Below are positions 8,980 through 27,519 of a stretch of DNA of 27,519 nt, in pieces; positions within the stretch are counted from its first letter, which is position 1; every line of letters starts with the position of its first letter. Origin of the DNA: Thermoanaerobaculia bacterium (lineage in GTDB: Bacteria > Acidobacteriota > Thermoanaerobaculia > UBA5066 > Gp7-AA6); NCBI GenBank assembly GCA_036505435.1, contig DASXTN010000312.1:1-27519 (forward strand). Direction: 5' to 3'. A model generated the notes under the pieces. The model ran no database searches. It was not told the origin of the DNA and was given only the letters and a program-made list of their open reading frames with translations. Position numbers and translations under genes: made by a program.

Positions 8980-9963
8980 TCACCGGAAGGAATCGGGCCA
9001 GACCCCCGTCGTGCGGGGACGGACCGTCCCCGCGGGCGCGCCCGTCGCCGACCAACCGCGTGCCTTCAGGCCGTGCGCCAGCCCCTTCAGGTAGTCGTTC
9101 CGGAGAATCCGATCGAGTGCCTGACGGACTCCCGGGAGTGCCCAGCGTTCTCCGAGGGACGCCCACCAGGCCACGAGGCGATCCCGGGCCGGGGAACCGT
9201 TGGCGTAGGTGAGCGCCTGCGGCACGCCCAGGAACTCGCCCAACTCCGGGTGCTTCTCGAAAAAGATCGCGGCTGCCTCGCCGGACTTCTTCTGTCGCCG
9301 CCGGAACGACGCGAATGTGATGTCGTGGTAGTGGCGCGCGACAGCTCCGCGTCGGTAGACGATTCTCATCCCTTGCCTGGTCAAACGGTACGCGATCTCG
9401 ATGTCCTCCCACGCGGCGTGCGGGAAGGTCGTGTCGAACAGGCCGGCGCCCTCCAGGAGACGCCGCGACAGCGAGACGTTGGACGTGTAGAAGAAGTTGA
9501 ACGGCACTGAATCGGGGTTCTCGATCAACCCGTAGCCAAACTGGAGCCCGTATTCGTTGATGTGGTGGAGGAATGGCGAAACCCGCCGCTCGGAGGGCCA
9601 CGTGGTATAGCCGAGCACTGCGACGGGATGGTCGCGTCGCTCGCCGTGCGCGAGCGCGTGGACGGCGAGAAAGGCGGGCTCGGGCACGGTGTCGTCGCCG
9701 AGGAAGAGAACGATGTCACCCTGCGCCTCTCGGACCCCTCGATTTCGTGCGCGCGCGGGTCCGGAGTTCTCCTGAAAGAAACAGCGCAGCGGATAGGTCG
9801 CCGAGTACGCCCGCAGGCGGTCGGGCGTTGAGTCGCCCGACCCGTCGTCGACGACGACGACTTCGTAATCCGGCGGTTCCGTTTGTCGGCCGAGGGCGTC
9901 GAGCACCCGGAAAAGGGTGTCGGGACGACGATAGGTCGGGATGATGACCGAAAACGAGGTCAT
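8980..9963 (-). CDS. Glycosyltransferase family 2
   Basis: FSVIIPTYRR, VVVVDDGSGD, NSGPARARNRG, FLGDDTVP, WEDIEIAYRL. Confidence 0.92.
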   Translation of the reverse strand: MTSFSVIIPTYRRPDTLFRVLDALGRQTEPPDYEVVVVDDGSGDSTPDRLRAYSATYPLRCFFQENSGPARARNRGVREAQGDIVLFLGDDTVPEPAFLAVHALAHGERRDHPVAVLGYTTWPSERRVSPFLHHINEYGLQFGYGLIENPDSVPFNFFYTSNVSLSRRLLEGAGLFDTTFPHAAWEDIEIAYRLTRQGMRIVYRRGAVARHYHDITFASFRRRQKKSGEAAAIFFEKHPELGEFLGVPQALTYANGSPARDRLVAWWASLGERWALPGVRQALDRILRNDYLKGLAHGLKARGWSATGAPAGTVRPRTTGVWPDSFR

Positions 9964-11165
9964 GGGGTTCCCCCCCCGACGAAGATCTCCTCGAGTGTGG
10001 TTCGAACGAGCTCCGGCGCGCGCGCCAGAAACTCCCGGAAGAAGTCGGAGTCGAAACGCTCGTCGCCGGGATAAGTCGGCACGAGCCGCAGAGGAAACTT
10101 CGAAAAGATCTCCGCATCCGAGCGGCTGCGGCGCGATTGGACCTCACGGCGCTTCGCGGCGAGCGACTCCTGGTTCCGACGAATCCACAACAGCGCCTTC
10201 AAGTGCGCGACCGTCAGCGGGTCTTCCAACCGCACCGTCGCGCCGGTTCCGTTCGAGATGCCGAACAGCCGGCGCAGGAGTGACGGTGTCCGAGGAGGCT
10301 CGGCGTAGGGATCGCGCGCGAGCTCCGCCGCGCCGGGATTGCGCGTCGCGAGCATCTCCGAGATCCGCATCAGGAACGCGGCGAGCACCGAAGGCATGAA
10401 GGCCGCGAAGTGGTCCCGATCGAAGTTCTTGTACGCGGTGGCGAAAGCGTTCTTCTCGAACAGGTAACCGCGCGAGTAGATGCCGAGCGCCGCGCCGGTC
10501 GCGCCACCGCGATGCCGGGCGATCGCTCGCGGCTCCGCGACGATGCGCCGCCCGAAGATCCACTGACGCCAGCCAAAGTCGACGTCCTCGAGGTAGGCGA
10601 AGTAGTCATCGTCGAAGCCGCCGGACGAAATGAATTCGCCGCGCCGCACGACCATGAGTCCCCCGCAGGCGAAAAGGCGCTCCTGACCGGGAAACACGTC
10701 CGGCAGCGCAGCGAGCAGGCGCCCGACCTCGCTCTGGAAGGCGTGCCCGTCGAAAGTGAGAAACCCATCGAAGAAGTCGTTGCGCTCGCCGGTCGAATCC
10801 GTCAACCGGCCGGCGACCGCGACGACGTCCGGATCGGAGCGCTCGAGAGCCTCCGAGAGAAGGCCCGGTGCCTCGGGCTCCACCACCGCGTCGTCGTTGA
10901 CGAAGAGAAGGAAACGACCGCGCGCGGCCTCCGCGCCGAGACGGCAACCTGCGGCGAAGCCGACGTTTCGGGACGCAGTGATCCGGCGGATCGTCGGATG
11001 TCGTCGCAAGAGCTCGACGATCGAGAGACCCGACGCATTGTCCACCACGAGGATCTCTCCGATCAGCCGGCCGCGGCAGGCAGTCTCGAGAGCTGCGAGC
11101 GTCTCGAAGAGGCGCTCCGAGCCGCGGTGGTGGACGACGACGATCGAAACGTCCGGAGTCTTCAT
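9960..11165 (-). CDS. Glycosyltransferase family 2 (WbbL-like)
   Basis: VSIVVV, ILVVDNAS, NVGFAAGCRLG, FVNDDA, GGFDDDYFAYLEDVDFGWR. Start moved to the ATG at 11165 (MKTPDVS). Its stop overlaps the next ATG (ATGA). Confidence 0.9.
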   Translation of the reverse strand: MKTPDVSIVVVHHRGSERLFETLAALETACRGRLIGEILVVDNASGLSIVELLRRHPTIRRITASRNVGFAAGCRLGAEAARGRFLLFVNDDAVVEPEAPGLLSEALERSDPDVVAVAGRLTDSTGERNDFFDGFLTFDGHAFQSEVGRLLAALPDVFPGQERLFACGGLMVVRRGEFISSGGFDDDYFAYLEDVDFGWRQWIFGRRIVAEPRAIARHRGGATGAALGIYSRGYLFEKNAFATAYKNFDRDHFAAFMPSVLAAFLMRISEMLATRNPGAAELARDPYAEPPRTPSLLRRLFGISNGTGATVRLEDPLTVAHLKALLWIRRNQESLAAKRREVQSRRSRSDAEIFSKFPLRLVPTYPGDERFDSDFFREFLARAPELVRTTLEEIFVGGGTP

Positions 11166-11202
11166 CGCCGGCGGGCAGAGTAAACCACGATGCCTCGGAC
11201 CG

Positions 11203-12456
11203 TCAGCGAGAGGGAGCCCGCCGCGTGAGCCGCCGCCAGAGCCGAGTCTCACGAACGGCCGGGTAGAGAAGTCGGTTCTCGTCCACCTGGGCGCGGGCAC
11301 ACCAGGAGACGAGCGGTTTCGCCACCCCTTCCCAAGTCCGGCGGGATGCGAACGCGCGCGCAGCCCGCGCCGCCTCGGCGTGCCGCTCGGGAGCGAGGCC
11401 GGCCAGAATTGCCCCGGCCAGACTTCGCGGCGAACTCTCGACCCGCCAGCCCGCGCCGGCTTCTGCGAGCTCGCGCGCGAGCGCGCCGCCGGCAACTGAA
11501 ACGGACGGGACTCCTCCCCACGCGGCGTCGAGCAACCGCGTTCGGTAGGCGAGATCCGTTTCCAGTCCCTCCGACGAGATGGAGACGATCAGATCGGAGG
11601 CGGCATACAGGTCTTCGCGCGCGGCATAGGGAATCCACGGCGAGAAGTGGATCGAGCGGCCCTCCGGATCGAGCTCGCGCGCCTTGACGCGCGCTTCTCC
11701 GTACAGGCGCTGCGGCGTCGTTTCGGGGTTCGGACTTTCGAGGAACAGCAAATGAGCGTCCGGCTGCTCCCGAAGGACCAACGACCAAGCATCCAGGAGC
11801 AGCGCGGGATCGTTCCAGTCGTAGATTCCTCCGAACAGGATGACCGGCCCCATTTCGGAAACTCCGGTGGCTCGCCGACCGGCGATGCGATCGCCTCGCG
11901 CGGGCCGCGCGGGCACGCCGAACGGAACGATCGCCAGGATCTCCGCCAGCGTCGGATCTTCCGGGAAGTTCGCGGCGCCGATTCGGCCAGCGGAGAAGAG
12001 CGCTCCGGCATAGAAGAGACGCTGCTCGGGCGAGGCGCAGAGGAACAAATCGGAACGTGCGAGGGCGAGTCGGAGCGTCGCGAGGTCGTGACGGGCGGTC
12101 TCTCCCCCGAGCGTTTCCGCGTAATGGAGATTCTCGATCGGAAAGGGATCGTAGAGGTCCACTGCGACCGGAACGTCCGGCGCCTGATGAAACCAGAAGT
12201 TCGCCGCATGCCCAGAGACGACGGCGGCACTCGCGCCCGCCGCGGCGGCCGCGAGATCGCCCTCCGGGGCGGCGTGCACGACCGGAACGTCCCCCGCCAC
12301 CTCGGTCGCCTCGGCCGGATCGTTCGGAACGAGGAGCCGCGCGTCGAGCTCGGCGGCGATCGCACGCGCGAGCTCGAGGGCGCGGATTCCCATCCCCGCC
12401 ATCCGCGGCCGGATTGGCTCCGGAGCGAGCACCGCGACGAAAGGGCGCGAAGACAT
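11203..12456 (-). CDS. Glycosyltransferase, GT-B fold (family 4-like)
   Basis: N-terminal MAGMGIRALELA, VILFGGIYDWNDP, YAASDLIVS, ETDLAYRTRLLDAAWGGVP, RTWEGVAKPL. Confidence 0.82.
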   Translation of the reverse strand: MSSRPFVAVLAPEPIRPRMAGMGIRALELARAIAAELDARLLVPNDPAEATEVAGDVPVVHAAPEGDLAAAAAGASAAVVSGHAANFWFHQAPDVPVAVDLYDPFPIENLHYAETLGGETARHDLATLRLALARSDLFLCASPEQRLFYAGALFSAGRIGAANFPEDPTLAEILAIVPFGVPARPARGDRIAGRRATGVSEMGPVILFGGIYDWNDPALLLDAWSLVLREQPDAHLLFLESPNPETTPQRLYGEARVKARELDPEGRSIHFSPWIPYAAREDLYAASDLIVSISSEGLETDLAYRTRLLDAAWGGVPSVSVAGGALARELAEAGAGWRVESSPRSLAGAILAGLAPERHAEAARAARAFASRRTWEGVAKPLVSWCARAQVDENRLLYPAVRETRLWRRLTRRAPSR

Positions 12457-12461
12457 GGGAT

Positions 12462-14366
12462 CTAGCTGCGCCCGCGAATGCGGTCGAGGAGGAGATGCAG
12501 CTTCCAGGTCCGCGAGTCGTAGATCTGGTTCAGGATCGCGGTCAGCCGGTCGATTTCGCCGTAGGTTTCGGCGAGCTGCCGATCGTACTCCTCGTTCTTC
12601 GCGAAGAGCTCGGCGAGGCGATCGTGGACGAGCTCGTTCTCGGCGGAGAGACGCGCCCTCTCGGTCTGGAGCTGGACGTTGCGCAGCTCGGACTCGGCGA
12701 GCCGCGTCTCCAGAGTCAGAGTGGCCGCGACCTGCGCCTGCGCGCGCGCCAGAGACTCCGCAAGGTGCTGATGATTCTCGCGCTGGTAGCGGAGCTCCCC
12801 CTGCGAGATCGTGTCACGTTCGTACCAGAACGCGATCTGCGAACGCATCCGATCGAGCGTGCGCCCCAGCCCTTCCTCGGTGCGCCGAGACGCATATCGT
12901 TGGTAGATCTCACTGCGTGCGCGTTGGAAGGAGGCGGACCCCGCCGCCGCGTGCGAGGAGCCCGCGCTGCTCTCGAAGGCGCGGTACTCGCACGTGACGG
13001 CCCGGACGTGCCGGAACGACGTCTCGAAGGACGCCCGGATCAAGAAGTCCCAGTCTTCCGAATACTCGAGCGCCTCGTCGAAGCCGCCGAGCTTCCGATA
13101 GAGAGCGCGCGGGAGGAGCAACGTGTGGAGCGGGATGTAGTTGGCGAGCAGCAGATAGTCGGGGTCGAAATCGAGCGAGTACTGCAACGCCCGCGCTCCC
13201 GCCTTCCAGTCCTCCCCCTCGCGCTGGTAGACGACCGTCACGGCGTCGGAGTAGACGACCGGCTCTGGACCCGACTGGTGGGCCGCCACCAGCCGCTCGA
13301 AGTGGTCGGGAAAGCAGAGGTCGTCGTCGTCGAGAAACGCGACGAGCTCCTCCGTCGCGGATTCCACGCCGCGGTTCGCGGCCGCCGACCGTCCGTGCCG
13401 CTCGGGGAGCTCCTCGAGCGAAATCTCGAAGACATCGCGGAAGGGCTCCACGACGTTGCAGACCGAAGCGCCGCCGTCGTTCACGACGACCACGTGTCGG
13501 GGACGTGCCGTTTGCGCGCGAAGGCTCGCGAGAGCCTCCGCGAGAAACACCGGTCGGTTGCGGGTTCGGACGACGACAGCGACCGGTGCGGGTCCGCGGC
13601 TGCCGTCCCGAACGACCGCCGGACCGATCGCCCGCCGGAACTCTTCGAGCGAGCGGGTCGACGCCTCCGCCCACGAAAGGACGCAGAACGCCTCGACAGG
13701 ACCGGTCCCCGGTAGCGTCAACCGTCGGTAAGCGTTCAGACCCTGGAGAGCGCCCGCGTAGTCCCGCACCGACTGCTGCGATTGGTAAGCGCGGAGCGCT
13801 TGCTGTTTGCGCGAGGCAACCCGCGAGATGTCCACCAGCACGTTCGGTAGGAACGGCTGCGAGATCTCGTAAAAGCCGAGCCGTAGGAATCGGTAACGAT
13901 CGTGATCGGGATCGCCCGGTCGCGAAGCGGAGACCGTCCGGTAGAGAGCTTCGGAGAGCGCGCGGTGGTCGGGGTGGATCTCCGCCGGCGACGGGCACAG
14001 CACGAGATCGGGCTCGAAGTCGGAGAGTTGTTCCGCGAGAACCCGACCGAGCTCTTCTCCGTTCGACACGAGCGACCGGTCCGAGAGTCCTGCGAAGACC
14101 GGGGACTCCAGGCAGAGCGTTGCGGCGGCGCGGCGCGATTCGTCGCGGCGGCGCTGCCCGTAAGCTTCGGAGCCTTCCTCCTCCGCTCCCTCCTGCGCGG
14201 TGCCGTCGGTCGCGATCCAGACTCGAATCGTGCTCCCCCGCTCCGCGCACAGGGCGAGGAGACCTCCTGCCCCGAGCACCTCGTCGTCGGGATGGGCGGC
14301 GAGGACGAGAACCCGTTCGGCGGTCAGGTCGCTCGCCTCGTAAGGGATGAGCTCGTCTTCTTTCAC
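12462..14366 (-). CDS. PIG-L/LmbE-family deacetylase - GT2 - coiled-coil fusion protein
   Basis: VLVLAAHPDDEVLG and IHPDHR (PIG-L metal motifs). VVVVNDGG, GRSAAANRG, FLDDDD, GGFDEALEYSEDWDF (GT2). About 100 aa of heptad-rich C-terminus ending SRTWKL. GTG start. Confidence 0.9.
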   Translation of the reverse strand: MKEDELIPYEASDLTAERVLVLAAHPDDEVLGAGGLLALCAERGSTIRVWIATDGTAQEGAEEEGSEAYGQRRRDESRRAAATLCLESPVFAGLSDRSLVSNGEELGRVLAEQLSDFEPDLVLCPSPAEIHPDHRALSEALYRTVSASRPGDPDHDRYRFLRLGFYEISQPFLPNVLVDISRVASRKQQALRAYQSQQSVRDYAGALQGLNAYRRLTLPGTGPVEAFCVLSWAEASTRSLEEFRRAIGPAVVRDGSRGPAPVAVVVRTRNRPVFLAEALASLRAQTARPRHVVVVNDGGASVCNVVEPFRDVFEISLEELPERHGRSAAANRGVESATEELVAFLDDDDLCFPDHFERLVAAHQSGPEPVVYSDAVTVVYQREGEDWKAGARALQYSLDFDPDYLLLANYIPLHTLLLPRALYRKLGGFDEALEYSEDWDFLIRASFETSFRHVRAVTCEYRAFESSAGSSHAAAGSASFQRARSEIYQRYASRRTEEGLGRTLDRMRSQIAFWYERDTISQGELRYQRENHQHLAESLARAQAQVAATLTLETRLAESELRNVQLQTERARLSAENELVHDRLAELFAKNEEYDRQLAETYGEIDRLTAILNQIYDSRTWKLHLLLDRIRGRS

Positions 14367-14395
14367 GGGCCTGCCATTCTGTTTACGTTCGAGGA

Positions 14396-14424
14396 AGTTT
14401 AGTCGCTTGAAAGTAAAAGGTTAA
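14396..14424 (-). promoter_or_regulatory. Putative sigma70 promoter internal to the glycan locus
   Basis: TTAACC-N17-TAAACT in the only AT-rich gap of the locus, ~30 nt before the GTG at 14366. Confidence 0.4.
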
Positions 14425-14427
14425 TGG

Positions 14428-15375
14428 CTACACCAAGTCATACAGCGAAGGAACCAGGTGCGCTCTTTGCGCGAAACGGTTCGCGGCTTCGTCGTCGAAG
14501 GTACGCACGATGATCGGAAAGCCCGCCTCACGCCGCTCTCCGCGAAGCCGAAGGAAGAGGTCCGCCGCCGGGCCGCCGGGTGTCTCCCAGAAGATGAGCT
14601 TCGAGGCGCCGAGCCGTCGCGCTTCCCCCGCCGCAGCGCCGAGCAGGATCGGCAGATCGCCTCCGTCGGCCTCACCGCAGAGCAAATCGGCGACCAGGGC
14701 GGCATCGCCGGCCACCGATAGGACGACCCATCCCGTCGCGCGACTTCCGCTCTCTCTCCAGACCATGCGGTACCACCTCGTCGGCCGCGCATGAAAGCGC
14801 CAATTCGCGCGAGCGCGATCACGCACGGGCGCATGGGTCAGGAACGTCTCCGCCACGTCCCACAATGGATCGAAACTCTCTCCGACCGAGTCTCCGGCGA
14901 CCGCGTCGGAGGGCGGCGCGGGAAAGGCATCGCAAGGCACGAGGATCTCGCGAATCGAGAAGAGGGTCCGCGAGCCGACGATCTTCTCGCTCACTTCGAG
15001 AGCGCGAGGGTTGGGAAAGCCGAAGCAGAAGGGCACGCCCCGAGCGCCTACTGCCTCGTAGAACGCCTCGGTCATCGAGCGGTAGATCCCGTGTCTGCCC
15101 CCAAGGCGGCGGACGGAGGGATCGGTCGCGACGTCGCCGACCGAGTAGCAGAGCGTCGGCTGGCCGTCGAGGAGCATCCGCGTCCCCCACCCCGAGTAGT
15201 TGCCGACGATCTCACCGTCGACGAGTGCGACGATGCCGAACCATCCGTCCGGGTTGCGCTCGAACTTCCAGGCCCACTCTTCCTCCGGCATCTCCTTCGC
15301 GAAGACGCGGGCGAAGAGGCGCCGGATGCCGGCTGCGTCGGCGGCGGTCGCCTCCCGAACGTGAAAGGCGGTCAC
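14428..15375 (-). CDS. GNAT-family N-acyltransferase
   Basis: FHVREATAADAAGIRRLFARVF, WKFERNPDG, VGDVATDPSVRRLG (motif A), FGFPN. GTG start at 15375 overlaps the upstream TGA (GTGA). The ORF-track start at 16164 is spurious. Confidence 0.85.
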   Translation of the reverse strand: MTAFHVREATAADAAGIRRLFARVFAKEMPEEEWAWKFERNPDGWFGIVALVDGEIVGNYSGWGTRMLLDGQPTLCYSVGDVATDPSVRRLGGRHGIYRSMTEAFYEAVGARGVPFCFGFPNPRALEVSEKIVGSRTLFSIREILVPCDAFPAPPSDAVAGDSVGESFDPLWDVAETFLTHAPVRDRARANWRFHARPTRWYRMVWRESGSRATGWVVLSVAGDAALVADLLCGEADGGDLPILLGAAAGEARRLGASKLIFWETPGGPAADLFLRLRGERREAGFPIIVRTFDDEAANRFAQRAHLVPSLYDLV

Positions 15376-16427
15376 CGCTCTTCTTTTTCCCAAACAAAGG
15401 TTTCGAGCGGACGTCCGTCGGTCGGGCGAAACGACCGCAGGTAGAGCGAGCCCGGCGGAAGGCGCATCGCGATCTCCTCGGGAAGGACGAAGCCTTCGTC
15501 GAGCGGCGATCCCGCGAACGGAAGGACGGAGGGATTTGTCGAGATCGCGGCCCACGCTCCGGAGCGCGCCGCGAGCCGAGGCTTCGCGATCCTGGGAACT
15601 ACAGTCGGTCGGCTGACCCTCGCGGCTCGCTCGAGGAGAGCCCGGCCGAAACGGCCATAGCGACGGCGCCAGTAGAGACGTCGCGATCGGAACCGGCGCT
15701 CCGGCGTCTCGGGACTCGCGGTGGCGCTCGCTCCCCAGAGGTGGTGTATCCGCGCCCTCGGAACGAACCGCAGCGCGAGACCACACCCGCGGACGCGATC
15801 TTCCCACTCCGTCTCCTCGAACTCGAAGGGAAACCGCTCGTCGAAGCGACCGACGCGATCGAACACCTCGCGACGGACGGCGAGGACGGCGCCGGAGAGT
15901 TGGCGCGTCGTCCCCCCGCGGTCCCAGAGCCGGAGCATTTCGCGCGCGAACGACGCGAATCGCTTCTCGGACCGCGAAGGCCACCGGCCGATGGAGAGCT
16001 GTGCGAGATCGGAGAGGAAGCTCGGCGACCAGCCGGCGGGAAGCCGGACATGCTCTTCGGCGTCCCAGAACGCGAGCGGGGCGGCCGCTCCGACCGACGG
16101 ATCGTCGATCGCCTCGAGCAGCGTCCGGACCGCATCGGGATGGAACACCACGTCCGCGTTGCAAACCAGGATCCGGAAGGACCGGGCGCGAGCGAGGCCG
16201 GCGTTGACGCCGCCCGCGTACCCGCGATTCTCCGCGAGCGGAAGGAAGAGATCGGCGCCCCCCCGTTCGAGCGCGTGCGTCTCCGCGAGACCCGAGCCGC
16301 AGTCGACAAGGACGATCTCCCCGACGATTCCTTCGGCGCGAAACGCCCTCCGGAGCGACGCGACGCAGTCGATCGCTTCGCGCGCGCTCAAGTGGCTGAC
16401 GACGACCGCGGAGACCTCGGGCAGCAC
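15372..16427 (-). CDS. Glycosyltransferase family 2 (WbbL-like)
   Basis: VSAVVVSH, IVLVDCGS, ENRGYAGGVNAG, VCNADV, VGRFDERF...EETEW. GTG start at 16427, 1 nt after the upstream TAG. Confidence 0.87.
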   Translation of the reverse strand: MLPEVSAVVVSHLSAREAIDCVASLRRAFRAEGIVGEIVLVDCGSGLAETHALERGGADLFLPLAENRGYAGGVNAGLARARSFRILVCNADVVFHPDAVRTLLEAIDDPSVGAAAPLAFWDAEEHVRLPAGWSPSFLSDLAQLSIGRWPSRSEKRFASFAREMLRLWDRGGTTRQLSGAVLAVRREVFDRVGRFDERFPFEFEETEWEDRVRGCGLALRFVPRARIHHLWGASATASPETPERRFRSRRLYWRRRYGRFGRALLERAARVSRPTVVPRIAKPRLAARSGAWAAISTNPSVLPFAGSPLDEGFVLPEEIAMRLPPGSLYLRSFRPTDGRPLETFVWEKEER

Positions 16428-16428: not shown

Positions 16429-17442
16429 CTACGCTCGCTCGCCGACCGCGCGGACGAAGGCCGCTTCCAGCCGCTCGGCGACCCGCGTGGCATCGAACCG
16501 TCCGGCGACGGAAGGGCCGTCACGGCGCGCGCGGGCGCGGGCGGTGTCCGACAACAGGTCCGGCAGCCGATCGGCGAGCGCGTTCGGATCTCCGTCGGCG
16601 AAGTACCAGGCGGCCTCCCCGGCGAACTCGCGGTGCCCGGGCGTGTCCGAGAGGAGACACGGCAGCCCACAGGCGAGCGCCTCGAGTGCCGGAAGACCGA
16701 ATCCCTCTTCCGGGCGCGAAGGCCCGATGAAAAGGTCCGACGCGCGGTACGCGTACGGCATCCGGTCGGGCGAAAGGCGGTGATGGTACTCGTCGGTGAG
16801 ACCCCACGACTTCTCCTCGTCACCGGCCGGTAACGGCGAGATGCGGCACAGCCGGAACCGTCCGCCGCGACGGCGCCACGACGCGAGGCCGGCGAACGCG
16901 ATCGAGATGCCCTTCACGTCCGCTTCGTACGGTCCGACGAGGAGAACGACCGGTGGATCCGACGGCGGGCGTTCGGGGCCGGGCGAGAAGCCGTCGGTCT
17001 CGAACGCCTGCCCGACGTTCGTCGCCGGCCCGAACCCCTTCTCTTCGAGCCGCCGGGCGAGTATCTCCGACACCGTGAGCTTTCGTGTCGGTGCGCGGTA
17101 CGCGGCCTCGATCGAGGCTCGCGACGACGCGTAGAAGCTGAAGTCCCCTTCGTATCCCTGGCAGAGATGGAAGACGGGTCCGCTCGCTGCCTCCATCGCG
17201 GGAGCGACCGTCGTCCAGAACGTCGCCACCCGTACGTCGGCGCGAGCGAGCTCGGTCGACTCTCGAAACGCCGACCGCTCGAAACGAGAACGTGCCAGTG
17301 AAAACCAGTCGGGCCGCCCCTCGGGCGAGATGACGGCGACGCGATGGCCCCGCCGCGCGAGCGCCTCCGCCTGGAGAAGGGCTACCTTGACGCCGCCGGA
17401 AAGCGCTGTGGACTCGAGCAAGTACGCGATTCGGAGACTCAT
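16429..17442 (-). CDS. Glycosyltransferase family 4 (WsaF-like motifs)
   Basis: SGGVKVAL...LARRGHRV, DVRVATFWTT, FHLCQGYE, EEGFGLPALEALACG (EX7E). Confidence 0.9.
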   Translation of the reverse strand: MSLRIAYLLESTALSGGVKVALLQAEALARRGHRVAVISPEGRPDWFSLARSRFERSAFRESTELARADVRVATFWTTVAPAMEAASGPVFHLCQGYEGDFSFYASSRASIEAAYRAPTRKLTVSEILARRLEEKGFGPATNVGQAFETDGFSPGPERPPSDPPVVLLVGPYEADVKGISIAFAGLASWRRRGGRFRLCRISPLPAGDEEKSWGLTDEYHHRLSPDRMPYAYRASDLFIGPSRPEEGFGLPALEALACGLPCLLSDTPGHREFAGEAAWYFADGDPNALADRLPDLLSDTARARARRDGPSVAGRFDATRVAERLEAAFVRAVGERA

Positions 17443-19842: not shown

Positions 19843-19861
19843 AGGCTCTCCCTCCGACGCG

Positions 19862-20992
19862 TCACCGTCCGAGCGCGAATTCGCATCGCCGGCAGAGGAA
19901 GTCGTCGGGCGCCTCCTCGACGCCATAGGTCCACCTCCGCAGCCGGGCCATCGCGTCGCCGCCCAGCACTTCGGCGACCGTTTGAGTTTTCAGGTCGCCG
20001 ATCGTGAGCTTCTCGTAGTAATCCTGGCAGCACAGCACCGCCTTTGCGGTCGCGGTGACGTGGAGGTGTTCGAAGGGGCGCGAGCCCATGAGCTCGCAGC
20101 CGCGCAGCTCCTTCACGGGCGGTGGCTCCGGCACGAATGTCCCGCTCGCCGGCCGACTGCGTATCCGGAACGACTTGACCTCCCAGCCCTTCGGTTCGAA
20201 GCGTTCGCGAATCTCGCGAACGTCTCTCCGGTGCGCTTCGTCGTTGTCGCCGAGGACGACGATCGCCGTTTCCTCCGCGATCTGACGGGCATGCAGAGCG
20301 TCGATGTTGGCGAGAACTCGCGTGAGGTCGCGGGTGCCGTGCATCCGCTCGTAGCGCGCGGGATCGAGCGTGGGGAGGTTCACTCCGATGTACCGGAATC
20401 GGCCCGCGTGAGCGAGCCGGTCCGCTCGGTCGGAACCGAAGTGAGACGCGTTGGTGAGCAACGAGACCGGCAGGCCGCGCGCGAACAGGGCAAGACAGCG
20501 CTCCTCGAACAGGGGGTCGATCGTCGGCTCGTTGTAATTCGACAGGAACACGACGACTCCTCGCGCGCCGATCGCAACCACCTGGTCGGCGATCGACTCG
20601 AAGAGCTCCTGGCTCATGACCTCCCTCTCGCGCGGATCGACCGACACCGGGCAGAACGGGCAACGGTGGTTGCAGCTCGTGCACGTTTCGAGCGAGACGA
20701 ACAGCAGGTGCGACCGGCGCGTCTCGGCGTCGAGGTCCTCGACCAAGAACCGGGCGGCGCGGAGGTGCTCGAGAACTTCCGGCTCGGCGTGGGCGGGAAG
20801 ACCCTGCCGGATGCGCGCGAGCGCTTCGAAGGCGGGGCCGTCCTTACCGAGCGACTCGCCCGTCGTCGGGTTATACAAAACGGAGCCCCGGTCGTGGAGG
20901 TAGGGCGAAACCGTCCCCCTGTCCACGAGCGTCGACGCGGTCTCTCCGCCCTGTACCGCGATCGGACTCATCGATCCTTGCGTCTCCTTCAT
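19862..20992 (-). CDS. Radical SAM protein with twitch/SPASM-type C-terminus and an RRE-like N-terminal extension
   Basis: CNHRCPFC (CX3CX2C), YNEPTIDP, LLTNAS, and C-terminal CELM...LCCQDY...IGDL...CRRC. Start uncertain (ATG 20992 or ATG 20971). Confidence 0.9.
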   Translation of the reverse strand: MKETQGSMSPIAVQGGETASTLVDRGTVSPYLHDRGSVLYNPTTGESLGKDGPAFEALARIRQGLPAHAEPEVLEHLRAARFLVEDLDAETRRSHLLFVSLETCTSCNHRCPFCPVSVDPREREVMSQELFESIADQVVAIGARGVVVFLSNYNEPTIDPLFEERCLALFARGLPVSLLTNASHFGSDRADRLAHAGRFRYIGVNLPTLDPARYERMHGTRDLTRVLANIDALHARQIAEETAIVVLGDNDEAHRRDVREIRERFEPKGWEVKSFRIRSRPASGTFVPEPPPVKELRGCELMGSRPFEHLHVTATAKAVLCCQDYYEKLTIGDLKTQTVAEVLGGDAMARLRRWTYGVEEAPDDFLCRRCEFALGR

Positions 20993-21087
20993 CGATCCGA
21001 TTCGCAAGCGGCCATTCTACTGGGGTTCTACGCGTCGGCCGCCAGGAACGTCGTCCAGCTCCGGCGTCTCACGCCTTCCTTCTCATT

Positions 21088-21142: not shown

Positions 21143-24100
21143 CTAGTAGATCAGATGCGTCGGACGCCCCTTCACGAAAACTGTATCGGAGCTGATCTGG
21201 TCGACCGTGACTACGTAGGCGCCGATCCGGCTGCCGGAGAGAACCTCGACTCGGATCGTCATGGGCTCGCCGACGATGCCCGGAACCGCCGCCATGGGGA
21301 GCTGCGCATAGTGGCCCGATCGTCCGGGATCATTCAGAACGAAGTCGAAAGCGCCGGCGGTCGAGCCGTCCTGCTTGACCGCGGTCACCCGAACCGGCGT
21401 CGGCAGATCACCCATCGCGAAGAAGCCGATGTTCGTCCGGAAGCGCAGGTTCTGCTGCGCACCGGGGAGAACCAGCGGGCTACCCGGCGCCACGCTCTCG
21501 GCGCCCGAATAGGCGAACAGCTGCATTCCGGCTGTTCCCGCCGAGCCGCGGTCGTCGTAGATCCGGCCGCCGATCAGGAGTGGTGCGGTCGAGTCGCTTG
21601 CGGCCCGGTATGAGATCCGCAGGACACCCTGCGTCGACTCTTGCTTGAGGTTCGCCGGTGTGTAGCCGTCGAGCACGCTTCCGACGACGTCGTCCAGGAC
21701 CATGGAACGTCCCGATCCGATCGTCACCGGTGCGAGAACTCGCTGCTCGACTCCGTTGCTGTCGGTGTAGCGATATTCGAACGTGAGATCGCGTGGAAGA
21801 GTGCTGTTGCTGTACAGAGTGAGATCCGTCTTCCAGTGCGGCCCGTCCGTAACGTCGTCGCGGCCGATGCGGCCGACGCCGGGGATGAAGTACTCGATCA
21901 CGGAATCGGCCGCCGCCGTGATGCGCGGCGTGTCATCGGAGACCTGAACGAGATCGTTGTTCCGCCGGTCGAGCGCCGACGCGGCGGCGATCAGCGAGCC
22001 CGTTCCCGAGACCGGAGACGCTTTGAGCACGTACCGCTTGTTCGAGTCATCGAGCCCGAGCTCGGCTGCCTGAAGGAGCGCCTGCTGGAAGGCTCCGATC
22101 GGAAACTCGCGGGTTAAGGTGGGCGAGCCGGTCGCGTCGAGCAGCGGGATCTGCGCGCCGTCCTCGCCGTAGGCGGTCAAGCGGAAGAACCCGGCTTCTC
22201 CGGACGCATTGAAGAGAGAGACGTTGAACCGGTAGCTCGCGTCGTTGCGCAGACCGACCAAGGTCTGCTCGGTGACGACCTCCGCCGCCTGGGTCGTCGT
22301 GCCGTAGGGGCCGACCTTGAACGTCGGGAGCGAGGATCCGTACGAGCGGCCGCGCTGGGTGAAGTAGACGGTCGCGGTCGCGATTGGGTCGGCGTCGCCC
22401 CCGTCGTATTTCAAGATGAGAACTCCGCGACCGTCCTTCCCGAGGCGCGCTTTGATGACGTCGTCCGCCGACCAGGACTGACCGGCCGCGAGGGCGACGC
22501 TGTTGACGGAGTTGAACACGATCTGCGAGAGGTCCGACGGGAAGGTCGTCCCGAACGGCTCGTAATACAGAGTGACCGTCATGGGTTGAGTGCCCGGATT
22601 CGTGACGGAGAGATCCGTCGCCCAGGTGCCGTCCGTCGACGGCGCAACAGGATCGATGTGACCGGCTCCCGGGATCATCAGCGCCTGGAATCGCGGTTGC
22701 TGAACCAGTACCTGGATGTTCGCCGAGGTCACTCCGCTGGTCGCGGTGCCGCCTCCCGTGACGGTCAAGACAACCGTCTTGGCCCCCGGCGAGGTGAACG
22801 TAAACGTAGCGGGATTGGTCGTTACAGGACCCGCGGGGCTTGCCCCGCCCGGGGAAACGGCCCAGGAGAATGTCGCGGCGGGATCGGTCTCCGTCGCCGT
22901 GAATGTGACCGGGCGGCCGGCCTCGACTTCGTACTGCCCGTTGAACTGATTTCGCGTTGCGCCGCTGACCGTATAACCGCCCGACGGGCGTGGCGGACCG
23001 CTTTGAACGATGGTGATCGAGGCCGAAGCGGTCGCTGGCGTTCCCGCCGTGTCGATCGCGCGGACCCCGACGATGAATGTTCCCGCCGTCGTGTACGTAT
23101 GCGTCGCCGTCGCGTTGTCCGGCGTATAGGAACTGCCGATCTGGAGCGCGTTGAAGTCCCAGTTCCAGCCGTAGGTGTACGGCGCGGTTCCGCCGCTCGC
23201 CGTCGCCGTGCAGGTCACGGCCGCGCCGGTCGATCCCTGCGCCGGGCAGCTCACCGAGACGGTGGGCGAACCTCCGCCGCCGCCGGGAGGAGGCGGGGGA
23301 GGCGGAGGCGGAGGGGGCGGCGGCGAGGAGCCCGTGATCGTGATGTTCGCGCTCGCGTAACCCCACGGCGCGCTGGGATCGTTTCTGCCGCGGACGGAGA
23401 TCTGGAAACTCTGACTACTCGAGTACGCGTGAGTGTTCGTTGCGGGACCTGCAGCGTAGAGCGGGCTGCAGAACGGACAATCGCCCCAATTCCACTCGTA
23501 GCTCGTGCCGGCGTTTCCGCCGGACACGGTGAACGTCACCTGGCTTCCCGCGGATGCGCTTGTCGGGCCGCTCAACGTCAGAAGCAGCTGATCGCTCACC
23601 GTGAACGGCTTGGTGACCGTCAGAGGCGTCTGCGAGGTTCCGCTGACGGAGTAGTTGTAGCGAAGGTGAACGTAGTAGGCCCCCGGCGTGGCAGGAGCCG
23701 TCAAGCCGGCCGATCCGCCAACGGACAGGAATCCCGAGCCGAGCGAGCCCGCATAGGCGCTCGGGTCGGTCGAGCTGTTGTCGATCGCATAGTCCACCGA
23801 CGTCAAAGTCGCAGCGGGGGCGATCTGCATGGAATTGGTGATCGTGAAGTTCGTCGCCTTGACAACGGAACTCGGCAGCTGAAAGTTGGGCACGAGGTTG
23901 ACCTGCTGGATCGTGCCGCTGATCACCGGAGCGGCGTAACCGCCCAGGTACTGGACCGTCAGGCGAAAGCTTCTCGCCGCGGTCGGCACAGTGGGCTGGG
24001 TACCCTGCGGGGTCCCGACGTTGTTGTTGGCGGAATCGAAGAACTGCCAGTTGAAAGATGCGTCGGCGACGTTCCCTTGTGAGCCGCTCGCGTCCGCCTG

Positions 24101-25840
24101 GCCGCCCGATAGCACCCGAAGGACGCCGCCCGAGAAGCCGGCAACCTGCGCCGCCGGCGGCTGAACCGTGAGCGCCGACGAGATGAACGCCGATGGGCTC
24201 CACCCGTTGGCGTTGTGGGAACGGACGCCAATGCGGAAGTCGGCGTTGCCCGCCGGGCTTCCGACACTACCCCAGCAGTTCGCGCCGGTGCGCGGATCGC
24301 CCGCCACCGCCCCGCTCGGATCGCACGGGATCACCACCGGGTTCAGATCGCTCAGGTTCGCGTTTGGAAGTGCACCGCTGAATGCGGGATCTACCTGGAA
24401 CGTGGTCAAGACGTTCAGATCCCATTCGATCTGATCGAGGGGAGCCCCGGACGACGAGGAGTTCTGGATCCGCCAGCGATCTCCGTAGTAGTTCTTGGTC
24501 GCTTCGGCCCCGGCGCGGTTCGCCGCCGAGAGGTTCGTGGCCGTGGCGGCCGCGATCGGAGGCGCGGTCAGGTCGGCGGAAATGCAGGAGATGTCGAGCT
24601 TGTCGGTGTAGACGGAGACCTCGGTCGCGCCTGACATCCGGCCGGCCGCGCGGTAGACGTACGCCGTGACTCCCGAACCGCCCGAATCGACGAGGGTCTC
24701 GAAGGAAACCGACTGGAAGCTCTGCGGCGCGCCGTTGTGACGAAGCGAGGCTGCCTTGAGCGGCGAGCCCCCCTGCGTCAACCATTTGGTGTCATAAATC
24801 TCGATGTAGGACTCGTTGTAAGACAGCTCGCGATGTAAGAAGAGCGCCGGAAAGGGTGAGTTGGCGCCGCCTTTGACGACCAGCCACTTGAAGTTGCCGG
24901 GCATGCTGCCGGCGAACGAGATCGATCCACCGAAACCGGAGGGGGTGAACTCGTAGACGCGCAGGCCCTGGCCGAGCTCGAGGACGAACAGGAAGATCCG
25001 GTTGTTGACCACGGCCATGTACGGAGCGTCCGGCTCCCCCACGGTGGCGATGCTCGCGATTTCCCGGAGTGTCCCGTTCGAGGGATCGATCTCCGCGAGC
25101 CGGAGCCGCCGGTCGGCGCCCATCGCGGCGAGCATCAAGAACTTGTCGTAGGAAAGAGTGGGGATCTGGATGTGCGCGCTCTTCAGCCGCACATAGCCGA
25201 TCCAGCTCGTGAAGCTCGAGTACGGCCGCAGCGCTTGCGCTGGGTCCGGGTCGCCCGTCGTATTCGTCGCATCGACGATCTGAACGCCCGAATCGGTCGG
25301 AAAGTAGCCGACGTAACGGCCGGAGGGCAGATACACCGCCGCAACCTGGGCGCCGAGCGGGACCGTGTCGATCTGGATCTGCTGCGCGAATTCGGGGACC
25401 CCAGCCCCCCCCGCGCGGGCAACCTGAGCGGGGAGTCCACCGCCCTGGCGCGACGCGTACCAGTCGGACATCATCCGGGAGCTCCCGTCGGGCGCTTCCG
25501 CGACATCCATCGTGGTCCCGCCCTGCCAGCAGTCGCAAACCATCGGGACCTTGCCGCCGTTGTTGAACTTGAGTCCAATCTGGCCGAGCGCCCACGACGA
25601 AGGGTTTCCGGGAACCGCGAGGCTCGATCTCGCGAATCCGAATTGCGTCATGACGTAGAGGTATCGGGATCCGCCGGCAGTCGTGATCCCCGTGAGGTTT
25701 CCGGAGTCCGCAGGCATCGTGTACCGGGAGTTGCCCTGGGAGATGGCGCAGTTCGATTGAGCGTTTGCGCCCGACGTGAGAGCCAGGGCGACCAGGCAGA
25801 CCGCGACACACTTCGACGGAGAGAGCCTCAATGGGTTCAT
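21143..25840 (-). CDS. Large secreted surface protein (signal peptide, beta-rich N-terminus, PKD/Ig-like domains, polyproline linker, tandem C-terminal beta modules)
   Basis: Signal peptide ...VCLVALALTSGANA|Q. PKD-like SYEWNWGD, YTYGWNWD...ATHTYTTAGTFIVGVRAID, ATFTFTSPGAKTVVLTVT. Two C-terminal repeats beginning LMIPGAGHI/YFIPGVGRI followed by WATDLSVTN/WKTDLTLYS. SD GGAGG upstream. Confidence 0.85.
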   Translation of the reverse strand: MNPLRLSPSKCVAVCLVALALTSGANAQSNCAISQGNSRYTMPADSGNLTGITTAGGSRYLYVMTQFGFARSSLAVPGNPSSWALGQIGLKFNNGGKVPMVCDCWQGGTTMDVAEAPDGSSRMMSDWYASRQGGGLPAQVARAGGAGVPEFAQQIQIDTVPLGAQVAAVYLPSGRYVGYFPTDSGVQIVDATNTTGDPDPAQALRPYSSFTSWIGYVRLKSAHIQIPTLSYDKFLMLAAMGADRRLRLAEIDPSNGTLREIASIATVGEPDAPYMAVVNNRIFLFVLELGQGLRVYEFTPSGFGGSISFAGSMPGNFKWLVVKGGANSPFPALFLHRELSYNESYIEIYDTKWLTQGGSPLKAASLRHNGAPQSFQSVSFETLVDSGGSGVTAYVYRAAGRMSGATEVSVYTDKLDISCISADLTAPPIAAATATNLSAANRAGAEATKNYYGDRWRIQNSSSSGAPLDQIEWDLNVLTTFQVDPAFSGALPNANLSDLNPVVIPCDPSGAVAGDPRTGANCWGSVGSPAGNADFRIGVRSHNANGWSPSAFISSALTVQPPAAQVAGFSGGVLRVLSGGQADASGSQGNVADASFNWQFFDSANNNVGTPQGTQPTVPTAARSFRLTVQYLGGYAAPVISGTIQQVNLVPNFQLPSSVVKATNFTITNSMQIAPAATLTSVDYAIDNSSTDPSAYAGSLGSGFLSVGGSAGLTAPATPGAYYVHLRYNYSVSGTSQTPLTVTKPFTVSDQLLLTLSGPTSASAGSQVTFTVSGGNAGTSYEWNWGDCPFCSPLYAAGPATNTHAYSSSQSFQISVRGRNDPSAPWGYASANITITGSSPPPPPPPPPPPPPGGGGGSPTVSVSCPAQGSTGAAVTCTATASGGTAPYTYGWNWDFNALQIGSSYTPDNATATHTYTTAGTFIVGVRAIDTAGTPATASASITIVQSGPPRPSGGYTVSGATRNQFNGQYEVEAGRPVTFTATETDPAATFSWAVSPGGASPAGPVTTNPATFTFTSPGAKTVVLTVTGGGTATSGVTSANIQVLVQQPRFQALMIPGAGHIDPVAPSTDGTWATDLSVTNPGTQPMTVTLYYEPFGTTFPSDLSQIVFNSVNSVALAAGQSWSADDVIKARLGKDGRGVLILKYDGGDADPIATATVYFTQRGRSYGSSLPTFKVGPYGTTTQAAEVVTEQTLVGLRNDASYRFNVSLFNASGEAGFFRLTAYGEDGAQIPLLDATGSPTLTREFPIGAFQQALLQAAELGLDDSNKRYVLKASPVSGTGSLIAAASALDRRNNDLVQVSDDTPRITAAADSVIEYFIPGVGRIGRDDVTDGPHWKTDLTLYSNSTLPRDLTFEYRYTDSNGVEQRVLAPVTIGSGRSMVLDDVVGSVLDGYTPANLKQESTQGVLRISYRAASDSTAPLLIGGRIYDDRGSAGTAGMQLFAYSGAESVAPGSPLVLPGAQQNLRFRTNIGFFAMGDLPTPVRVTAVKQDGSTAGAFDFVLNDPGRSGHYAQLPMAAVPGIVGEPMTIRVEVLSGSRIGAYVVTVDQISSDTVFVKGRPTHLIY
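23270..23323 (-). repeat. Pro13-Gly5 homopolymer linker
   Basis: 13 consecutive Pro codons (mixed CCG/CCC/CCT) followed by 5 Gly codons. Confidence 0.95.
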
Positions 25841-25849
25841 ACGCGCAAG

Positions 25850-25950
25850 ATCCTCCGGGAAAGGATGGACGACGGCATTTCCTAAGAAATGTTTCAGTTC
25901 AAAGCGTGGGCGGTTGCAACGACTATACGACTTCCCGCGAGACGGTTCGA
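25850..25950 (-). promoter_or_regulatory. Putative promoter and structured 5' UTR of the large surface protein
   Basis: -10-like TATAGT (25927-25922), TCGAAC 17 nt upstream, hairpin CATTTC-N4-GAAATG (25876-25891), and a hairpin covering the SD (25850-25866). Confidence 0.4.
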
Positions 25951-26107
25951 TTGAGTGTTTGCGATCCTACCTTCGGAAAATGTTCGGTCAGGTCTCCAGA
26001 TGACGAGCACTTTGGTAATTTGTTCAAGATCAGATTTCAAATGCCCTTCTTCGGCCAAAGAGCATGCGAAATCCGGCCTCGTTCCCCGACCGACCTCCTG
26101 ACTGAAG

Positions 26108-26148
26108 CGAAAGAAAAGAAGTGGGCGGGACTGGGTCCCGCCCACTTT
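26108..26148 (-). terminator. Intrinsic terminator
   Basis: 13-bp stem AAGTGGGCGGGAC/GTCCCGCCCACTT (26119-26131/26135-26147), followed on the minus strand by CTTTTCTTTC, just after the stop at 26157. Confidence 0.85.
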
Positions 26149-26156
26149 CACTGAAT

Positions 26157-27519
26157 CTAGGGCGAACCGGAACCGGTCCCGACGACCGTCGGAATCGCCG
26201 GAGCCACCGTCACCACGCCCGTTACGCCGAGCGGGACACAGGTGGTCGGATCGAGCTGTGTCGCCGGAGCGGAGGCCGACAGGAAGGCACCCGGGCCCTG
26301 GAAGTCGTACTCGACCCAGGCCTGATCGAGTCTGCCGCCGTTCGGCGAACCGGAGTTGAAGAACGACATGTTGACCCAGCCCGCGACGGCGCCCGAAGGC
26401 CGCGAGAACTGCGTGACCGGGCTCCGCTGCGTCTCCAGCGGGAAGTTGAACGAAGGCTGCGTGCACGGCGACGGGCAGACGCCCGATGTGACCGTGTTCT
26501 CGTCTTCGTCGTAGAACGTCAGGCTGACCGTCGCCTCCGTGTGGGTGCAAAGGGGCAGACCGGTCGAGCTCGAGATCGGGCCGGTCAGGTTCGTCCTGGC
26601 GCCCGACGAGCCGCGCCAGACGTTGAAGAAGGAGTTGATGCCCGCGCCCTCGAACCACCGAGCCGCATACTTCAAGCCCAGAGGCTCGCGCCGGTCACCG
26701 ACGCCGAAGTTCCACGGCGAGCTGAGAGCCAGGTCGGTGTCGGAGTTGCCGCTTCCGCAGTTGTTGCACGCGATTTCCGCGGCTGCTCCCGTCAACGTCC
26801 AGTAGCGCCGATAGAAGGTGCGGATCGGCGTCGTATCGCTGGTGTTCGCTCCATCGAGCGAAGCATCGGCCTCGATGTTGACTGTCGAGCCGCCCATGGT
26901 GGGAATCCCCGAGCCGGAGGTGAAGATCACCTCACCGAACAGGTTGTTCTCGTTTCCGATCGCGTCGTTCCGGTAGTAGAGCGGATCGCTCGGATTCGAG
27001 AGGTTGCAGTAGTTGGCGTGGTCGATCGTGATGTAGCCCCGAATCGGGCCGGAGATCACGCCGTCCGTCGATCCGTTCCCGCAGCCCAGGGAGTCGGCCG
27101 TCGAGTCCAGAGAATCGAGCACCTGGAACTCGAAGGAGCTGCCCTGGCCGAAGGCCGGGATCGGGTAGAGCGTGGTCGCGAGCGTGTTGTCTTCGGGCAG
27201 GGTCGGGTTGGCCGGACGCACGCGGATAAATCCGTCCGGATCTGGATACACCGGCGCAATCGAGTTGCGCTGACAGACGTCGTCGAGGACGGTGTCGGTA
27301 TTCAAGAATGCACCCGTCTGCGGGAGGTTGCCGCGCAGGATCTCGGAAATTCGCATCGCCTGACAGTCGAACCCCGTCAACGCGATGTTGAAGTCGAGGA
27401 CGAGGACCGTACGCTCATTGAAGACGTTGACGTGAGCGATCATCGGCGCCGCTGAGGCGTTGCAGATCGTCACGAGAGTGTCTCGAGCGGTCGGCCCTGT
27501 CCCGAGAGGCGACCCGTCC
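26157..27519 (-). CDS. 5'-truncated Cys-rich, Ser/Thr/Gly/Asn-rich probable surface (S-layer-like) protein
   Basis: The frame is open to the window edge (...DGSPLGTGPTARDTLVTICNAS...), so the ORF-track start at 27473 is internal. Beta-rich composition and 11 visible Cys. Motifs TLVTICNAS..PMIAHVNVF, LDFNIALTGFD, GWVNMSF, QAWV recall an uncharacterised secreted family I associate with Thermoanaerobaculia (from memory). Signal peptide not visible. Confidence 0.75.
   Translation of the reverse strand, partial: DGSPLGTGPTARDTLVTICNASAAPMIAHVNVFNERTVLVLDFNIALTGFDCQAMRISEILRGNLPQTGAFLNTDTVLDDVCQRNSIAPVYPDPDGFIRVRPANPTLPEDNTLATTLYPIPAFGQGSSFEFQVLDSLDSTADSLGCGNGSTDGVISGPIRGYITIDHANYCNLSNPSDPLYYRNDAIGNENNLFGEVIFTSGSGIPTMGGSTVNIEADASLDGANTSDTTPIRTFYRRYWTLTGAAAEIACNNCGSGNSDTDLALSSPWNFGVGDRREPLGLKYAARWFEGAGINSFFNVWRGSSGARTNLTGPISSSTGLPLCTHTEATVSLTFYDEDENTVTSGVCPSPCTQPSFNFPLETQRSPVTQFSRPSGAVAGWVNMSFFNSGSPNGGRLDQAWVEYDFQGPGAFLSASAPATQLDPTTCVPLGVTGVVTVAPAIPTVVGTGSGSP

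Follow-up and report, generated by a model that had tools for sequence, protein, structure and literature searches.

The DNA analyzed in this study (the window) is a complete contig, C312, of 27,519 bases from an uncultured member of the Thermoanaerobaculia. We found that it contains all but the proximal quarter of a conserved ~30-kb cell-envelope locus, in which genes for a glycan polymer pathway are interleaved with genes for secreted proteins. The Thermoanaerobaculia are abundant in soil and have hardly any cultured members, and we know of nothing that has been established about their envelope. A literature search found no description of an S-layer or of this locus in Thermoanaerobaculia. 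In relatives, the genes for three secreted proteins separate wzm and wzt, which encode the permease and the ATPase of one ABC transporter. This arrangement suggests that the secreted proteins are functionally tied to the polymer. Tentatively, we favor the reading that the proteins dock non-covalently on the polymer once it has been exported and, probably, displayed on lipopolysaccharide (LPS).

The window belongs to a metagenome-assembled genome (MAG) of 1.47 Mb in 331 contigs. Since genomes of the same genus are ~3.3 Mb, under half of this genome has been assembled, and absences from it therefore carry little weight. The completeness stated for the MAG, 71%, looks too high given these sizes. 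Relatives were found through the family of the Cys-rich secreted protein; all are uncultured Acidobacteriota from soil metagenomes, mostly labelled Thermoanaerobaculia. Protein families were assigned by Pfam and NCBIfam scans of the window proteins, and conservation was examined by tblastn of all window proteins onto the regions of relatives. The genome tallies took in the unpublished genome G025, on which no claim rests.

The order of the locus in relatives is wzm, an FG-GAP gene, the gene for the Cys-rich protein, the gene for a large PKD protein, the radical SAM gene, wzt, the methyltransferase gene, the transferase genes, and a PEGA gene, with a divergent XRE-type regulator upstream. Six glycosyltransferase domains, a de-N-acetylase and a GNAT are encoded between the methyltransferase and the PEGA gene. 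In every relative examined, wzm heads the locus. The gap of ~10 kb between wzm and wzt in relatives of the full layout holds the three secreted-protein genes and the radical SAM gene. In G001, which belongs to the same genus, the Cys-rich protein has 479 aa with a signal peptide, and the genes upstream encode an FG-GAP propeller protein (538 aa) and an ABC-2 permease (261 aa). The same gene order was detected by tblastn in three genomes of the genus, in six of other genera of the family, and in a second family of the order; the layout as such is kept across three families of the order. Roughly 80 genomes carry the locus. The PEGA gene always follows the gene for the last family 2 glycosyltransferase (GT2c), also where the locus is split. 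Chance would not give such conservation at the levels of genus, family and order. An orthologous wzm was not found in the window or in its own assembly, which at 1.47 Mb is partial and does not show absence. A previous sequence-only reading of the window had placed two surface proteins at the head of the locus. Since wzm and the FG-GAP gene lie further upstream in relatives, the genes of the two proteins stand inside the locus, with wzm on one side and wzt on the other, and the window stops short of the locus head. The wzm that this reading had proposed to search for was found in relatives, upstream of the protein genes. The synteny that it had proposed to check proved tighter than is visible in the window: the surface-protein genes stay by the glycan locus in three families, between the two transporter genes.

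Three variants of this layout were seen. Genus g15 keeps all genes except the radical SAM gene. Genus g17, of the third family, keeps wzm, the FG-GAP gene, the genes of the Cys-rich and large proteins, wzt and most transferases, but has neither a radical SAM nor a methyltransferase gene. The break in genus g19 falls exactly between the large-protein gene and wzt. At one site, wzm stays with the three protein genes; a second site holds wzt together with the genes of the transferases and the PEGA protein and with the downstream flanks. Thus, the adjacency of protein and glycan genes is old and robust, and the permease gene is coupled more closely to those of the secreted proteins than to that of its own ATPase. 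In one g19 genome (G057, contig C2; L133-L134), the large-protein gene is followed by two giant genes, one for ~2,900 aa with CarboxypepD_reg and one for 1,791 aa with DUF6531 and RHS repeats. No wzt/transferase block was found in that region.

We also examined whether the protein and glycan genes are lost together. Three genomes (G004, G008 and G017) had no matches to either the protein genes or the glycan genes, and they also lacked the conserved flanking phosphatase gene. In two others (G022 and G024), the flanking gene lies on contigs of ~6 kb. The absence of the locus from these five genomes is therefore most likely due to assembly gaps and is uninformative on coupling.

The glycan half of the locus appears to be a standard Wzm/Wzt pathway with unusual tailoring. 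All locus genes in the window lie on the minus strand. The Wzt ATPase (18586-19926, with an alternative GTG start at 19842) has an ABC_tran match of 3e-22 and a C-terminal domain of the carbohydrate-binding type. In the PDB, it matches the Wzt of Aquifex aeolicus best (8DKU, 1.4e-72, residues 6-300), and its NCBIfam matches are TagH and galactan Wzt/RfbE. The Wzm of relatives has its best PDB match in 6M96_B, also from Aquifex (2e-23). The Wzt_C match of the window copy reached 24.9 bits, below the Pfam cut-off of 30.4, and the orthologue in G001 has a Wzt_C match that carries no such mark. Next to wzt is encoded a class-I S-adenosylmethionine (SAM) methyltransferase (17459-18589; Methyltransf_23/11/12/25) with an uncharacterized N-terminal extension of ~170 aa; it is a candidate chain-capping enzyme. 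A family 4 glycosyltransferase (GT4a, 16429-17442; Glyco_trans_1_4 and Glycos_transf_1) is followed by GT2a (15372-16427; Glycos_transf_2), whose GTG start at 16427 lies 1 nt past the GT4 stop. A GNAT acyltransferase (14428-15375; Acetyltransf_9, 4.7e-12) precedes a PIG-L de-N-acetylase-GT2 fusion (12462-14366; PIG-L 2e-28, Glycos_transf_2 4.6e-19), whose C-terminal tail of ~110 aa reads as heptad- or coiled-coil-like with an amphipathic end. The remaining transferases are GT4b (11203-12456; Glyco_trans_1_4), GT2b (9960-11252; Glycos_transf_2 7e-13, with an uncertain start at 11252 or 11165), and the EpsD-like GT2c (8980-9963; Glycos_transf_2 1e-25, NF041875 EpsD 194 bits, below its cut-off). 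GT2b is the least conserved gene of the block, and its orthologue matches were weak or missing in several relatives. A secreted PEGA-domain protein (7867-8874; PEGA 5e-15, signal peptide) is the product of the last co-oriented gene, and a terminator-like hairpin 3' of this gene (7775-7754, minus strand) ends the unit. Stop and start codons overlap by four bases at three junctions, namely GT2a/GNAT (GTGA), GT2b/GT2c (ATGA) and wzt/methyltransferase (TTGA).

Most of what the sequence-only reading had said of this half was borne out. Its gene order from the Cys-rich protein to the final GT2 was recovered on the minus strand by Pfam and NCBIfam, and its overlapping stop/start pairs are the three junctions above. 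The ABC-transporter-dependent pathway that it had proposed agrees with the PDB matches of Wzt and Wzm, and the lipid A/core, Wzx/Wzy and capsule-export genes that it had noted as absent from the window were not matched there by Pfam or NCBIfam either. Its assignment of wzt with a Wzt_C domain held for the ATPase; for the domain, the match of the window copy is below the cut-off and that of the same-genus orthologue is not marked so. Its left boundary at 8980 has to be moved, since the co-oriented unit runs on through the PEGA gene to the hairpin.

LpxC was found in five of five relatives tested, which points to an LPS-bearing lineage and is in line with the earlier suggestion of a diderm. No match to Wzy_C was found in the window or in the G001 locus with 10 kb of flanks, and no initiating transferase (Bac_transf, Glycos_transf_4) or rml-type nucleotide-sugar gene was matched in the locus in the window or in G001. 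Wzy_C was also not found in the partial own assembly of 1.47 Mb, where absence is not shown. Relatives encode elsewhere 3-6 Wzy_C proteins, some of them large, with 4-6 in the complete genomes, and 3-4 Bac_transf (WbaP-type) proteins; three of the five genomes have a second Glycos_transf_4 (WecA/MraY-type) gene. The nearest Wzy_C genes are 90-180 kb from the locus in closed relatives, and an STT3-like GT-C is also encoded away from it. The search suggested by the sequence-only reading, for an initiating enzyme and an O-oligosaccharyltransferase (O-OTase) or ligase, thus gave none in or near the locus, and the Bac_transf, Wzy_C and STT3-like genes found were all elsewhere. Since the locus has no OTase, ligase or initiating transferase, the acceptor of the polymer is putative, and covalent glycosylation of the proteins is hypothetical. 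In G040, the STT3-family open reading frame (ORF) encodes 1035 aa (L145, G040:C1:1751000-1757000) with the motif WWDDGY, the catalytic signature of AglB/PglB-type N-OTases. The STT3-like matches in genomes of family f1 have no WW motif.

The Cys-rich acidic secreted protein is encoded at 26157-27519, where the contig end cuts off its 5' end. It has no Pfam or NCBIfam family, and the same scans found no known S-layer domain in it. Its orthologues have 470-533 aa (~479 aa at full length in relatives), begin with MKK and carry a Sec signal peptide; four of their Cys residues are invariant and three nearly invariant. The mature protein has a pI of 4.1. The AlphaFold2 (AF2) model is all beta-sandwich, and a PDB fold search with this model gave no match at E < 0.001. 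The homodimer prediction scored 0.80, compared to 0.00 for the best of three controls. The mark used for this prediction was reached by 20 of 30 solved homodimers and by 1 of 23 solved monomers. This prediction supports self-association of the Cys-rich protein. In one g15 genome (G046), about six full or partial Cys-rich paralogues were found on several contigs, some of them in tandem (C12:114133-117526), which suggests variant coat subunits.

The gene of the Cys-rich protein forms a cassette. In ten of ten relatives, it is preceded by a conserved TTGACA -35 box, a plausible -10 box, a leader of 150-200 nt and a GAGGAG ribosome-binding site, and a 12-14 bp GC hairpin with a T-run follows right after the stop. 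The window copy of this terminator (26147-26119, minus strand) has a 13-bp stem with 9 GC pairs and a T-rich tail, and lies 10 nt past the stop. S-layer structural genes adjoining S-layer glycosylation (slg) clusters are likewise monocistronic cassettes (PMC2943079). The signals suggest that the Cys-rich gene is probably an independently and strongly transcribed structural gene. Several smaller elements were seen around it. An ATGA-N7-AGCATA motif stands before the TTGACA box (L120:9760-10000; equivalents in L016-L033). Within the leader, a GGGAGGTGATGG block is invariant. It looks like an extended Shine-Dalgarno sequence, placed far 5' of the true ribosome-binding site, and may act as an mRNA stabilizer or a ribosome stand-by site. 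Neither the window nor the conserved leader of a relative matched an Rfam family. Between the terminator and the large-protein gene, 70-90 nt past the terminator, there is a conserved element of the GATTTC(A/G) type, both in the window (~26062-26074, minus strand) and in relatives; it may be a promoter or operator of that gene, and by eye it does not fit the sigma54 consensus.

The large secreted protein of 1565 aa (21143-25840) consists of a Sec signal peptide, an N-terminal region without a family, PKD domains, a Pro/Gly linker and two tandem C-terminal modules. The last 526 aa were modeled by AF2 with a predicted local distance difference test score (pLDDT) of 87. The two modules are weakly similar to each other, and each contains a beta-sandwich like that of ASRT/TM1070. 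Comparison using VIA-align gave Z 11.2 to TM1070 (1nc7) and Z 9.1 to the Anabaena sensory rhodopsin transducer (2ii7); the Pfam models of ASRT and DUF5719 did not detect the modules. In the AlphaFold DB, secreted proteins of many kinds, among them peptidases, glycosidases and beta-lactamase-like proteins, carry the whole tandem at their C-termini, with template modeling (TM) scores by query of 0.6-0.76. The same entries match the AF2 model of the Cys-rich protein. BLASTP found no sequence similarity between the Cys-rich and large proteins (E 0.32), and their link is at the level of fold only. Each genome has 3-5 further large ORFs with the module, and one g19 genome has ~20. Since it is common to many unrelated secreted proteins, it behaves like a surface-retention module.

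The ASRT/TM1070 (ASRAH) superfamily has been argued to be sugar-binding and includes extracellular cell-surface versions (De Souza, Iyer, Aravind; PMC2739507). The modules studied here resemble it in their Z scores and in the presence of extracellular surface versions on both sides, and differ from it in being tandem double sandwiches on giant secreted proteins of Acidobacteriota. The fold matches thus suggest that the Cys-rich and large proteins share an ASRT-like module that is probably sugar-binding.

We next considered the radical SAM/SPASM (twitch-like) enzyme (19862-21007; Radical_SAM and SPASM), which has a CX3CX2C motif, C-terminal auxiliary Cys residues and an N-terminal extension of ~95 aa. 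The likely start is the ATG at 20992 or 20971. Homologues with 35-42% identity cover the extension, and the fusion partners of several of them are class-I or FkbM methyltransferases, a GT2, or a GT4 together with a GT2. The neighboring genes of the homologues encode a GT4, a methyltransferase or Wzt. A search for close homologues gave near-orthologues only and was uninformative on context. The only solved relative found was the sugar-modifying enzyme BtrN (E 1e-5), with similarity confined to the radical SAM core. The enzyme studied here is like BtrN and the twitch-SPASM sugar enzymes in its Cys motifs and in its glycan-biosynthesis context, but its family is a clade of its own, often fused to methyltransferases. 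Because of these fusions and neighbors, the relation to BtrN, and the persistence of both secreted proteins without the enzyme in g15, g17 and g19, we assign it to glycan tailoring, often with a methyltransferase partner; its reaction is putative. This agrees with the extra chemistry on the glycan that the sequence-only reading had attributed to it. It is highly improbable that the enzyme instead matures the Cys-rich or large protein, through thioether cross-links like QhpD or formylglycine like anSME. Its gene does lie directly downstream of the two protein genes, it has the N-terminal extension, and SPASM enzymes often act on peptides. However, it is the homologues covering this extension that are fused to glycosyltransferases and methyltransferases and adjoin GT4, methyltransferase and Wzt genes, and the best solved relative is BtrN. 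The enzyme is also cytoplasmic, whereas its supposed substrates are Sec-exported. A maturase role, including that of a ribosomally synthesized and post-translationally modified peptide (RiPP) type, was rejected on the fusions, the neighborhoods and the phyletic pattern.

The analysis shows which genes are present, that their order is conserved and that the exporter is split, together with the signals of the cassette, the folds and the radical SAM fusions; the acceptor, the docking, the abundance of the protein and any lattice are inferred. In our proposal, common nucleotide sugars would be assembled into a polymer on a polyprenol carrier, on the cytoplasmic side. An N-acetylhexosamine of this polymer would be deacetylated and re-acylated, and further tailoring would come from methylation and, in most lineages, from the radical SAM enzyme. 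The polymer would probably be capped, recognized by the C-terminal domain of Wzt and exported, and a ligase encoded elsewhere would transfer it to its acceptor, most likely lipid A-core. The Cys-rich protein would be an acidic, self-associating coat subunit, separately and probably strongly transcribed. Together with the large protein, it would dock non-covalently on the polymer via the shared ASRT-like modules, as Caulobacter RsaA does on O-antigen. Gram-negative S-layers are anchored through LPS (PMC6978808). Given the ASRT-like modules in the secreted proteins, non-covalent docking fits at least as well as covalent attachment.

Several observations weigh against this proposal. The flanking genes tmk, holB, and those for the PDZ-GAF-SpoIIE phosphatase, the TPR protein and the sigma54 activator are equally syntenic; since they are unrelated to the locus, part of the conservation may be plain genome collinearity. 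The twelve cysteines of the Cys-rich protein are unusual for S-layer proteins, its AF2 model has a moderate pLDDT of 65, and codon bias, taken as a stand-in for expression level, did not set its gene apart. Searches for RNA runs listed none. Beta-sandwiches like that of ASRT are common, and sugar binding by this fold is itself inferred. Moreover, we know of no component in the locus that would export the polymer or the proteins across the outer membrane.

These observations were weighed together with other explanations of the locus. It is rather unlikely that the exported polymer is covalently O- or N-linked to the Cys-rich and/or large protein by an OTase encoded elsewhere, resulting in an S-layer-like glycoprotein coat as in the slg systems of Geobacillus or Paenibacillus; this is the model of the sequence-only reading. 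The embedding of the protein genes between wzm and wzt throughout the order is consistent with such a link, as are the Wzy_C proteins of relatives and the STT3-like GT-C with its WWDDGY motif in G040. The target-like Cys-rich gene is a monocistronic cassette, as are S-layer genes near slg clusters, and the methyltransferase and the Wzt C-terminal domain fit methyl-capped export as in Geobacillus stearothermophilus (PMC2943079). However, no Wzy_C/OTase, initiating transferase or nucleotide-sugar gene is in or next to the locus, and even the closest Wzy_C genes of closed relatives are far off. The proteins also have no Ser/Thr-rich acceptor region, and lipid A-core is the default acceptor of a Wzm/Wzt product in an LPS-bearing diderm. 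A fuller version, which we consider doubtful, is an undescribed glycoprotein coat: a lattice of disulfide-bonded Cys-rich dimers, covalently glycosylated with a methyl-capped, radical-SAM-tailored polymer via the split Wzm/Wzt, with the PKD/ASRT-like and FG-GAP proteins as assembly or anchoring partners. If true, this would be the first case, in a diderm and in Acidobacteriota, of S-layer glycosylation that depends on an ABC transporter.

The locus could also be an ordinary one for LPS O-antigen or exopolysaccharide, with secreted proteins that are unrelated neighbors held by collinearity in a slowly rearranging lineage. The equal synteny of the unrelated flanks is what this explanation expects; the split in g19, where both halves are kept, and the dispensability of the radical SAM and methyltransferase genes in some genera also agree with it. 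We regard it as unlikely, as the same three protein genes part the two subunits of one transporter in every lineage examined, wzm stays with these genes when the block breaks, and the proteins carry a fold that is probably sugar-binding (PMC2739507). It is quite improbable that the secreted proteins are accessory machinery of the polymer, such as periplasmic or outer-membrane handlers, lyases or chain processors like AlgL, PslG and PelA. The FG-GAP beta-propeller gene right after wzm, with a sub-threshold match to the C-terminal domain of rhamnogalacturonan lyase PL11, and the lack of a known outer-membrane export component in the locus would suit such a role. In contrast, Pfam and NCBIfam gave no catalytic family in the Cys-rich or large protein, fold searches gave binding or structural beta-sandwiches and no enzymes, and a cassette with its own promoter and terminator is atypical of a machinery subunit. 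Non-covalent docking on an exported polymer is thus the reading that we carry forward, as a tentative one. The locus links protein and sugar, without showing that the sugar is attached to the proteins.

We then compared the locus with known systems. The slg clusters of G. stearothermophilus NRS 2004/3a and Paenibacillus alvei share with it Wzm/Wzt, GT2 and GT4 transferases, a methyltransferase and a Wzt recognition domain, as well as tightly packed overlapping genes and a monocistronic gene for a secreted structural protein close by (PMC2943079). In the slg clusters of Geobacillus, an in-cluster OTase (Wzy_C), an initiating enzyme and nucleotide-sugar genes are defining parts (PMC2943079). In contrast, the present locus has no WsaB-type Wzy_C OTase, WsaP-type initiating enzyme, or rml or other nucleotide-sugar genes. 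Its wzm and wzt are parted by protein genes, whereas the slg pair lies together upstream of the transferases, and it has in addition a radical SAM enzyme, PIG-L and GNAT. Its host is an LPS-bearing diderm acidobacterium, and a glycoprotein is hypothetical here. The slg analogy drawn by the sequence-only reading therefore stands for the transporter, the GT2/GT4 transferases and the methyltransferase, and fails for the in-cluster OTase, the initiating and sugar genes, and the adjacency of wzm and wzt. Since these three defining features failed, the locus should not be filed as an slg cluster, though it may work like one.

The locus is also like the systems for ABC-dependent O-polysaccharide with export gated by a carbohydrate-binding module (E. 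coli O9a, K. pneumoniae, Aquifex 6M96/7K2T/8DKU). Both transporter subunits have their best matches among them, and the Wzt C-terminal domain, a methyltransferase by wzt, one transferase with a coiled coil and the lack of Wzx/Wzy are shared. It differs from them in that three genes for secreted proteins and one for a radical SAM enzyme stand between the two exporter genes, the capping enzyme is a candidate, and the ligase and initiating enzyme would be encoded elsewhere. Caulobacter crescentus RsaA, a surface protein whose retention depends on an O-polysaccharide, offers a model for a coat that docks non-covalently on a glycan from nearby genes, also in a diderm host (PMC6978808). However, RsaA is an RTX protein that uses type I export, whereas the proteins studied here have Sec signal peptides, unrelated beta-sandwich folds and a putative binding role.

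With its glycan exporter genes placed around the gene of a secreted protein that is probably abundant and self-associating, this deeply conserved locus provides candidates for the outermost layer of Thermoanaerobaculia. The recurring beta-sandwich module may represent a new type of domain that anchors secreted enzymes at the cell surface. This study also defines a radical SAM family tied to glycan tailoring, and the split wzm/wzt is an unusual gene arrangement in O-antigen export.

The rest of the window is occupied by flanking genes. The plus strand carries the genes of thymidylate kinase (tmk, 5975-6598) and of the DNA polymerase III delta' subunit (holB, ending at 7551), and these converge with the PEGA gene. 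A minus-strand ORF at 5894-7591 was rejected as a gene because it is antisense to tmk and holB, though tblastn appears to conserve it in relatives. The genes for a GAF-sigma54 activator, a TPR protein and the PDZ-GAF-SpoIIE phosphatase follow on the minus strand (285-5897). These three genes are syntenic with the glycan block in all three families and, in the split genus, are found on the side of wzt and the transferases; they may have a regulatory link to the locus.

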